From: Escherichia coli
Lineage (GTDB): Bacteria > Pseudomonadota > Gammaproteobacteria > Enterobacterales > Enterobacteriaceae
Direction: 5' to 3' (one strand)
DNA length: 64,000 bases
Assembly (NCBI RefSeq): GCF_041886205.1
Contig: NZ_CP169029.1
Shown here: positions 53,675 through 54,607 of the stretch, piece after piece
Layout: the number at the start of each line of letters is the position of its first letter
How positions within the stretch are numbered: position 1 is the stretch's first letter
The notes under the pieces: generated by a model
The model's input: the letters and a program-made list of their open reading frames with translations, nothing else
The model's database searches: none
Told to the model about the DNA's origin: nothing
Translations under genes and position numbers: made by a program

Positions 53675-54607
53675 ATGTGGTCAGAATATTCACTCGAAGT
53701 TGTTGATGCGGTAGCGCGTAATGGTAGTTTTAGCGCTGCGGCACAGGAGCTGCATCGCGTTCCTTCTGCGGTCAGCTATACCGTGCGTCAGCTGGAAGAG
53801 TGGCTGGCGGTGCCGCTCTTTGAAAGACGGCACCGTGATGTGGAACTGACCGCTGCCGGGGCGTGGTTTCTCAAAGAAGGGCGCTCTGTTGTCAAAAAAA
53901 TGCAGATCACCCGCCAGCAATGTCAGCAGATAGCGAACGGCTGGCGCGGTCAGTTAGCTATCGCAGTGGATAATATTGTCAGGCCAGAACGTACACGGCA
54001 GATGATCGTTGATTTTTATCGCCATTTTGACGACGTCGAACTTCTGGTCTTTCAGGAAGTGTTTAACGGTGTCTGGGATGCGCTTTCCGATGGGCGCGTG
54101 GAACTGGCGATTGGCGCAACACGCGCGATTCCGGTAGGCGGTCGTTATGCCTTCCGGGATATGGGGATGCTAAGCTGGAGTTGCGTTGTTGCCAGCCACC
54201 ACCCGCTGGCGTTGATGGATGGCCCGTTCAGCGATGATACGTTGCGCAACTGGCCGTCGTTGGTGCGCGAAGACACCTCGCGAACGCTACCTAAACGTAT
54301 TACCTGGTTGCTGGATAACCAAAAAAGAGTTGTCGTGCCTGACTGGGAATCATCGGCAACCTGTATCTCGGCAGGATTATGCATAGGGATGGTGCCAACA
54401 CATTTCGCCAAACCGTGGCTTAATGAGGGGAAGTGGGTAGCACTTGAATTGGAGAACCCCTTCCCGGATTCGGCATGTTGTCTGACATGGCAGCAAAATG
54501 ATATGTCGCCTGCGTTAACCTGGCTGCTTGAGTATCTCGGCGATAGTGAGACGCTGAATAAGGAGTGGCTGCGGGAGCCGGAAGAGACTCCCGCAACGGG
54601 TGATTAA
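53675..54607 (+). CDS. ydhB: LysR-family transcriptional regulator YdhB (PunR)
   Basis: 310-aa ORF with N-terminal HTH ([23 protein letters not shown]). Confidence 0.85.

Follow-up and report, generated by a model that had tools for sequence, protein, structure and literature searches.

A conserved hairpin within the last codons of punR lies at the 3' end of the convergent purR mRNA of Escherichia coli

Introduction

Overlaps of 4 bp formed by TTAA, CTAA, TTAG or CTAG are the modal class among convergent gene pairs, and are caused by these tetramers (Lillo and Krakauer 2007, PMC2174442). The same study counted 58 convergent overlaps in E. coli, 19 of which involve a gene with a predicted Rho-independent terminator; as the pair overlaps, that terminator must lie inside the coding sequence of the partner. 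The signal that defines the end of one transcript may thus be written in the last codons of another gene.

Stable transcript ends are also found at stem-loops that lack a U-tract. Dar and Sorek (2018, PMC6061677) described Rho-dependent transcripts that end just past stable stem-loops of this kind. In their model, termination takes place downstream, PNPase and RNase II trim the RNA back to the protective stem-loop, and the sequence after the stem-loop contains more C than G. A different mechanism is described by Ju et al. (2019) for bidirectional terminators, where a stem-loop sets the place at which converging polymerases collide head-on; these elements are reported there to be Rho-independent and unlike intrinsic terminators.

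Here, we describe the junction between the convergent genes purR and punR in a stretch of 64,000 nucleotides (the window), which matches E. coli LHM10-1 at 100% identity. The names punR and punC replace ydhB and ydhC; punC, a purine nucleoside transporter gene, is divergent from punR and is activated by PunR (PMC8376909).

Results

Genes and overlapping stop codons

punR (53675–54607, plus strand) encodes a LysR-type activator of punC of 310 residues, as defined by its open reading frame, the RefSeq annotation and the Pfam domains PF00126 and PF03466. The opposing gene, purR (54604–55629, minus strand; open reading frame and RefSeq), encodes the LacI-type purine repressor of 341 residues, a length found in all 79 scored loci. 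Table S1 of Rodionova et al. 2021 gives both purR and ydhB (b1658 and b1659) as the genes nearest to PunR ChIP-exo peaks; if PunR bound close to purR, this would link the two regulators directly, independently of the overlap of the stop codons. Between purR and ydhP, RefSeq places cydH (ynhF; about 55928–56017, plus strand), the gene for a 29-residue accessory subunit of cytochrome bd-I. It is below the default ORF-list length and is syntenic in Serratia, Erwinia and Pantoea.

Both stop codons are contained in a single TTAA tetramer at 54604–54607, read on both strands. The TAA of punR occupies 54605–54607, and the TAA of purR is the complement of 54604–54606. The plus strand from 54600 to 54609 reads gtgaTTAAcg, and the overlap is exactly the four capital letters. 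A preliminary description of this DNA had placed a 4-bp overlap of the convergent ydhB and purR stops here, and its positions agree exactly with the sequence, the ORF ends and the RefSeq annotation. The overlap is already carried by RefSeq in E. coli LHM10-1 and in MG1655 (purR 1737844–1738869, punR 1738866–1739798). A 2.1-kb stretch around the junction matches E. coli chromosomes at 100% identity and occurs as one copy in 5424 of 5426 complete E. coli genomes; the 101 nt of the junction itself are at least 99% identical in 5393/5423 genomes, and the 4-bp overlap is near-invariant in about 5400. The purR/punR overlap is already known and is part of the core E. coli chromosome.

On the plus strand, the purR stop reads TTA, and the base after it is set by the third position of the last Arg codon of purR, to which it is complementary (A for CGT, G for CGC). 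As a result, TAA or TAG is fixed in one plus-strand frame, and where TAA is fixed every plus-strand ORF that arrives in that frame ends there. The shared tetramer ([C/T]TA[A/G]) is TTAA in the window, TTAA or TTAG in 27 of the 79 loci, CTAG in Serratia and TTAG in Erwinia. The two genes are a real tail-to-tail pair on opposite strands, annotated in RefSeq and conserved in 79/79 loci where both can be scored. The 4-bp overlap requires no special explanation; this is an ordinary, annotated and very compact convergent junction.

A GC-rich hairpin just past the purR stop

The purR-sense RNA contains a GC-rich hairpin at 54568–54597 (minus strand), with its 5' arm at 54597–54586, its loop at 54585–54580 and its 3' arm at 54579–54568. 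The stem has 12 pairs, two of them G·U, and encloses a 6-nt loop. Read from 54597 down to 54568, it is GUUGCGGGAGUC-UCUUCC-GGCUCCCGCAGC, an extension of an 8-nt perfect inverted repeat (TGCGGGAG/CTCCCGCA). The hairpin sits within punR codons 299–307. The 40-nt segment that contains it is the most stable one on the minus strand over purR and punR (−23.2 kcal/mol, compared to a mean of −8.0 kcal/mol), and across 79 loci the median rank of the hairpin is within the top 0.6% or so of windows. In E. coli, the fold energy is −22.1 kcal/mol for the purR-sense strand versus −15.9 kcal/mol for the punR-sense strand; the mean fold energies are −20.1 and −19.1 kcal/mol, respectively.

The 12-pair stem begins 6 nt after the purR stop, and a GC-rich stem-loop shortly after a stop codon is what is expected of a canonical intrinsic terminator. 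The sequence beyond the stem is not. It reads CACUCCUU on the minus strand and GGGUGAUU on the plus strand, and the first nucleotides past the stem (CACUCCUUAUUC) include three U in 8 nt, compared to the U-run of about 7–8 nt in canonical terminators. Published 3' ends fall 2–5 nt past the stem, rather than about 7–9 nt past it within a U-tract. A consensus scan requiring at least five T in 8 nt found no terminator-like site at the hairpin on either strand, and no family in Rfam matches it. No second copy was found in the 64-kb window, where a covariance model of the hairpin matches the junction only.

The 3' end of purR mRNA

Two published datasets place the steady-state 3' ends of purR mRNA at 54563–54566 (minus strand), 2–5 nt past the base of the hairpin. 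The Term-seq study of Adams 2021 (PMC7815308) reports a "primary" purR 3' end, antisense to ydhB, at MG1655 1738907 (+) in LB at OD 0.4, and a "primary" end at 1738908 in M63. MG1655 coordinates were subtracted from 1793473 to obtain window positions, and the register of the 61-nt strings of Adams was checked on thrL; the two ends correspond to 54566 and 54565, 2–3 nt past the hairpin base. Independently, TRS 2023 (PMC10687069, Supplementary Data 2–4) places the primary terminus of purR at MG1655 1738909/1738910, or 54564/54563 in the window, and its table folds the same 12-pair hairpin at −23.2 kcal/mol. These data show that stable purR mRNA ends at the conserved hairpin, approximately 40 nt into punR. 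Neither the Adams 2021 Term-seq nor TRS contains a 3' end for ydhB/punR, and the locus is absent from the TERMITe supplements. In Supplementary file 2 of Adams 2021, neither purR nor ydhB has a significant bicyclomycin-sensitive Rho region, although low expression could mask one.

The preliminary description had also stated that the two genes have no intergenic terminator and that each transcript must run into the other as antisense. The first statement is literally correct, as there is no intergenic DNA and the scan found no hairpin followed by a U-run, but it is misleading, as a conserved hairpin marks the steady-state purR 3' end. That each transcript enters the partner gene follows from geometry: the coding regions already overlap, so it is impossible for both transcripts to end before the partner gene. 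The picture of purR reading through ydhB as antisense does not hold for the stable mRNA, whose Term-seq and TRS ends leave an overlap with punR of only the 40 nt or so noted above.

Other 3' ends were noted in the same region. The Adams 2021 Term-seq includes further minus-strand ends at 55640 and 55521 (MG1655 1737833 and 1737952). The former is 11 nt upstream of the purR start codon, downstream of a PurR-box-like sequence (AGGCAAACGTTTACCT), and the latter is 108 nt inside purR; they may be linked to purR autoregulation or premature termination. A strong end at about 52212–52214 (minus strand; MG1655 1741259–1741261) is located approximately 137 nt downstream of punC, after the hairpin CGGGGACAGGAUCGUUCCCG. 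It is an "orphan" in Adams 2021 and is assigned to the "5' UTR" of cfa in TRS, and may represent the terminator of punC or a leader element of cfa.

Conservation and covariation of the hairpin

To explore the conservation of the hairpin, 80 Enterobacteriaceae loci were gathered by a PunR-based scan. The hairpin is present in 80/80 of the loci with an examinable junction, and a cmsearch found the element at the junction in 80 of the 81 sources searched and nowhere else. A run of 6–13 consecutive pairs occurs at the junction of every locus in spite of differing arm sequences, for example GCGGGAGCC/GGCTCCCGC, GCGGGCGCCGG/CCGGCGCC, GCGGACGCC/GGCGTCC, GGGTGCCGG/CCGGCACCC and GCGAACGC/GCGTTCGC. One arm encodes the conserved PunR residues L-R-E/A/T-P. 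In 47 loci the other arm is non-coding, and elsewhere the protein sequence that it encodes is poorly conserved, yet it covaries with the coding arm.

RNAalifold did not find the hairpin in a plain MAFFT alignment of all loci, since the loop varies in length by up to one codon or more, which puts the 5' arm out of register. The analysis was thus carried out on a single-register subset (39 loci) and on a covariance-model alignment (80 loci). In the 39 same-register loci, aligned by MAFFT only, both sides have changed in 7 of the 12 pairs and the covariation score is 0.25, compared to at most 0.13 with slid partners and 0.10 in shuffles (0/500), a statistic inflated by kinship among the sequences. 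In the 80-locus alignment, which as a model-guided alignment is biased towards the structure, compensatory changes on both sides are seen in 10/12 pairs, the covariation score is 0.28 (at most 0.077 with slid partners), and 84% of the cells are paired (at most 52% with slid partners). The covariance-model result thus points in the direction also given by the slid controls and by the alignment made with MAFFT only. The inner 10 pairs contain 44 G·U cells on the purR-sense strand and only two A·C cells, which would be G·U on the other strand. Judged from these alignments, the hairpin is maintained by compensatory substitutions across the Enterobacteriaceae and is under selection as RNA.

Three other structures considered for the punR 3' end behave differently. 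An inverted repeat inside purR (54706–54718/54753–54765, plus strand; 13 nt) has three of its 13 pairs formed in only 25–42% of loci, and no compensation is seen. A terminator-like hairpin enclosed by this repeat (54727–54743, plus strand; tail AAUCUUUUGG) is 57% paired overall, again with no compensation. By the same comparison, both are probably fortuitous. A 4-bp hairpin at 54608–54619 (plus strand) can be attributed to invariant codons of purR.

Position of the punR stop codon relative to the hairpin

The position of the punR stop was tallied in 79 scorable loci, 78 fetched and the window itself. A 4-bp overlap (TTAA or TTAG) is found in 27 loci, where PunR has 310 residues and codon 304 is a sense codon. 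Five loci have spacers of 1–5 nt (PunR of 307–309 residues), 46 have spacers of 14–22 nt (303 residues), and a single locus has a spacer of 45 nt (303 residues). In most genera, represented by the group with 14–22 nt spacers, the punR stop (TAA, TAG or TGA) lies inside the hairpin loop, as it does in 46/47 of the loci with a 303-residue PunR; the locus with the 45-nt spacer has a different hairpin. In 79/79 loci, only a short distance separates the purR stop from the conserved PunR body.

In E. coli, codon 304 of punR is GAG (54584–54586), at the position where 47/79 loci have the punR stop. punR thus reads on for seven codons, through the distal arm of the hairpin, to the stop that overlaps purR, adding a C-terminal extension, E-T-P-A-T-G-D (54584–54604, plus strand), that was recognized by comparison of the loci. 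The extension is poorly conserved, being EAPAQQA, EVPAGEA or EAPDSAD elsewhere. Lineages in which punR has no stop before the overlapping tetramer include Escherichia, most Citrobacter and Salmonella arizonae, as well as, from the more distant Enterobacterales, one Serratia and one Erwinia locus. The next in-frame stop in these lineages is the TAA or TAG formed by the complement of the purR stop plus one base.

Outside the Enterobacteriaceae, Serratia plymuthica and Erwinia sp. 9145 have the 4-bp overlap, with a hairpin 9–10 nt past the purR stop, while the spacer of Pantoea is 72 nt and contains two hairpins. In Yersinia pseudotuberculosis (L085; 2501–3631 and 3494–4519), PunR is called with 376 residues and overlaps purR by 138 nt. 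About 100 nt separate the conserved end of PunR from the purR stop in Yersinia and contain two hairpins, one of which is followed by UUUGCUAU; the 138-nt overlap probably reflects either loss of a stop or an artefact of annotation.

Discussion

Origin of the purR 3' end

Termination by Rho further downstream, with exonuclease trimming back to the hairpin, appears to be the likeliest origin of the purR end, and we hold this view with moderate confidence. We infer such read-on and trimming because no U-tract follows the hairpin, at whose base the mapped end lies. A stable stem-loop without a U-tract and a steady-state 3' end directly after it, as in the Rho-dependent class with protective stem-loops, are both found at purR. 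In this scheme, purR transcription would continue past the hairpin into the untranslated, C-rich antisense of punR, where Rho would terminate the transcript downstream of the hairpin. 3'-to-5' exonucleases (PNPase, RNase II) would then trim the tail back to the hairpin, which would from then on protect the purR mRNA. The same palindrome may cap the punR mRNA as well. The first 78 nt past the hairpin (54490–54567, minus strand), a candidate Rho loading region, have a C content of 0.31 and a G content of 0.19 (C/G 1.6). The whole punR antisense has 0.31 C versus 0.23 G; such an excess of C over G is generic for the antisense of coding DNA and is weak evidence for Rho. Two points speak against trimming after Rho termination: the lack of a significant bicyclomycin-sensitive region for purR or ydhB in Adams 2021, subject to the low expression mentioned above, and the fact that a hairpin without a U-tract between convergent genes is also the signature of the Rho-independent bidirectional terminators of Ju et al. 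(2019).

The main alternative is that the hairpin is a true termination element: either an intrinsic terminator of non-canonical form or a Ju-type bidirectional terminator, at which both transcripts would end without Rho. The locus is indeed a convergent pair with a single palindrome shared at the gene ends, which also folds on the punR-sense strand with a mean energy close to that of the purR-sense strand. Ju et al. describe such elements as Rho-independent and unlike intrinsic terminators, and Adams 2021 lists no Rho region nearby. Furthermore, with the punR stop in the loop (about 46–47 loci), an end just past the hairpin leaves a complete punR ORF. However, neither the Term-seq nor the TRS dataset has a punR 3' end, and collisions need frequent transcription from both sides, whereas both genes are weakly expressed (baseMean of 521 for purR and 38 for punC). 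At +2 to +5 nt, the mapped end falls nearer the stem than the 7–9 nt typical of hairpin-driven release, and the G·U asymmetry favours one strand. We therefore consider a true terminator unlikely. A further idea is that the hairpin mainly serves punR, for instance as a stabiliser of the 3' end of its mRNA or as a translational pause near its stop, with its use by purR being secondary. In its favour, one arm encodes the conserved L-R-E-P of PunR and the loop holds the punR stop in about 46–47 of the 79 loci, but G·U pairs are tolerated on the purR-sense and not on the punR-sense strand (44 versus 2), the E. coli fold is weaker on the punR side (−15.9 versus −22.1 kcal/mol), the sole mapped end is that of purR, and in E. 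coli a punR mRNA ending at the hairpin would lack its stop codon. A primary role in punR is accordingly rather improbable.

A by-product of coding constraint, or chance, with the mapped ends as functionless decay intermediates, might be suggested by the constraint that conserved PunR codons impose on one arm, and by the many decay products present in 3'-end maps. Such an explanation is extremely improbable: compensatory changes keep the coding arm matched to the other arm, which in 47 loci does not code and in the rest encodes poorly conserved residues; nearby palindromes (54706–54765, 54727–54743) decay freely at synonymous sites; and the end is the primary purR terminus in both datasets. A more elaborate proposal, which we regard as highly doubtful, is that the hairpin is a shared 3'-end element of both mRNAs, for which the position of the punR stop relative to the hairpin matters. 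If this were so, a punR mRNA ending at the hairpin would be complete in the species with the stop in the loop (Klebsiella, Enterobacter and others). For E. coli, whose punR stop is 8–10 nt past the hairpin, trimming or collision-type termination there would give a non-stop punR mRNA, leading to tmRNA-mediated rescue and low PunR, with PunR output coupled to the purR 3' end. Deletions of punR that remove 54568–54579 would likewise destabilise the purR mRNA.

Transcriptional interference

From the apparent lack of a terminator, the preliminary description had drawn the possibility of interference between purR and the ydhBC module; mutual regulation of purR and punR-punC could in principle occur by interference or by antisense pairing. 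The coding regions do overlap, and the final 40 nt or so of punR are covered, in antisense, by the stable purR mRNA. Adenosine also shifts purR and punC in opposite directions in the RNA-seq of Rodionova et al. (log2FC of −1.37 for purR and +1.58 for punC). However, autorepression by PurR together with activation of punC by PunR and Nac explains the opposite shifts, punR is not among the adenosine-changed genes, and deletion of punR changed only the punC mRNA in the published RNA-seq (Rodionova et al.). The purR mRNA has a defined 3' end at the hairpin, and since both promoters are weak, collisions should be rare; interference between them is probably negligible. Moreover, a tight junction is common to 79/79 Enterobacteriaceae loci and to Serratia and Erwinia, with or without overlap of the stops (it is longer in Pantoea and Yersinia), which argues that the stop overlap itself is not the selected feature. 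The proposal is thus unsupported by these data, and regulation of this kind is very unlikely.

Implications

Overlapping stop codons do not imply a missing terminator, as the 3'-end signal can lie in the last codons of the neighbour. The locus also illustrates how a 4-bp overlap is created by a stop-to-sense change in a hairpin loop. What is modestly new here is a covariation-supported hairpin used as the purR 3' end, and the alternation of punR between a stop in the loop and a stop overlapping purR; both are descriptive.

The practical value is small. Deleting or recoding the punR 3' end (54568–54597) alters the purR 3' hairpin and could affect the purine repressor. The Keio deletion design retains only the last 21 nt or so of a gene, and for punR it would remove one arm of the purR hairpin (54568–54579). 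A polar effect of punR deletion on purR was considered and is unsupported, as the authors of the MG1655 punR-deletion RNA-seq state that punC alone changed (Rodionova et al.). Deletion of ydhB has been reported to give growth defects in minimal medium.

Comparison with known systems

Among the 4-bp convergent overlaps (PMC2174442), purR/punR is a plain member that shows no difference from the class, the overlap arising when a gene that has lost its stop codon is extended at its 3' end. It also resembles the pairs in which a terminator is embedded in the convergent partner, as the purR 3'-end signal is encoded in the last codons of punR; the terminators of that study are, however, predicted to be Rho-independent, whereas the purR hairpin lacks a U-tract. 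The same feature separates the hairpin from canonical intrinsic terminators. It shares their GC-rich stem (12 pairs), 6-nt loop and terminator-like folding energy, but CACUCCUU follows the stem, the 3' end lies 2–5 and not 7–9 nt past it, and no terminator is called by the scan.

The bidirectional terminators of Ju, Li and Liu (2019) and of the Wang et al. 2022 preprint are similar in that a palindrome is shared by a convergent pair and is non-canonical. The purR/punR locus differs from them: of the two 3' ends that would be expected, just that of purR is mapped, both genes are weakly expressed, and the pairing is asymmetric in favour of the purR-sense strand. The Rho-dependent protective 3' stem-loops (PMC6061677) share a stable GC-rich stem-loop without a U-tract and a 3' end directly after it; C also exceeds G downstream of the purR hairpin, a skew that is generic for the antisense of coding DNA. 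The purR stem-loop differs from these in being located inside the coding sequence of the partner gene, not in a free 3' UTR, and the participation of Rho and exonucleases at purR is predicted.
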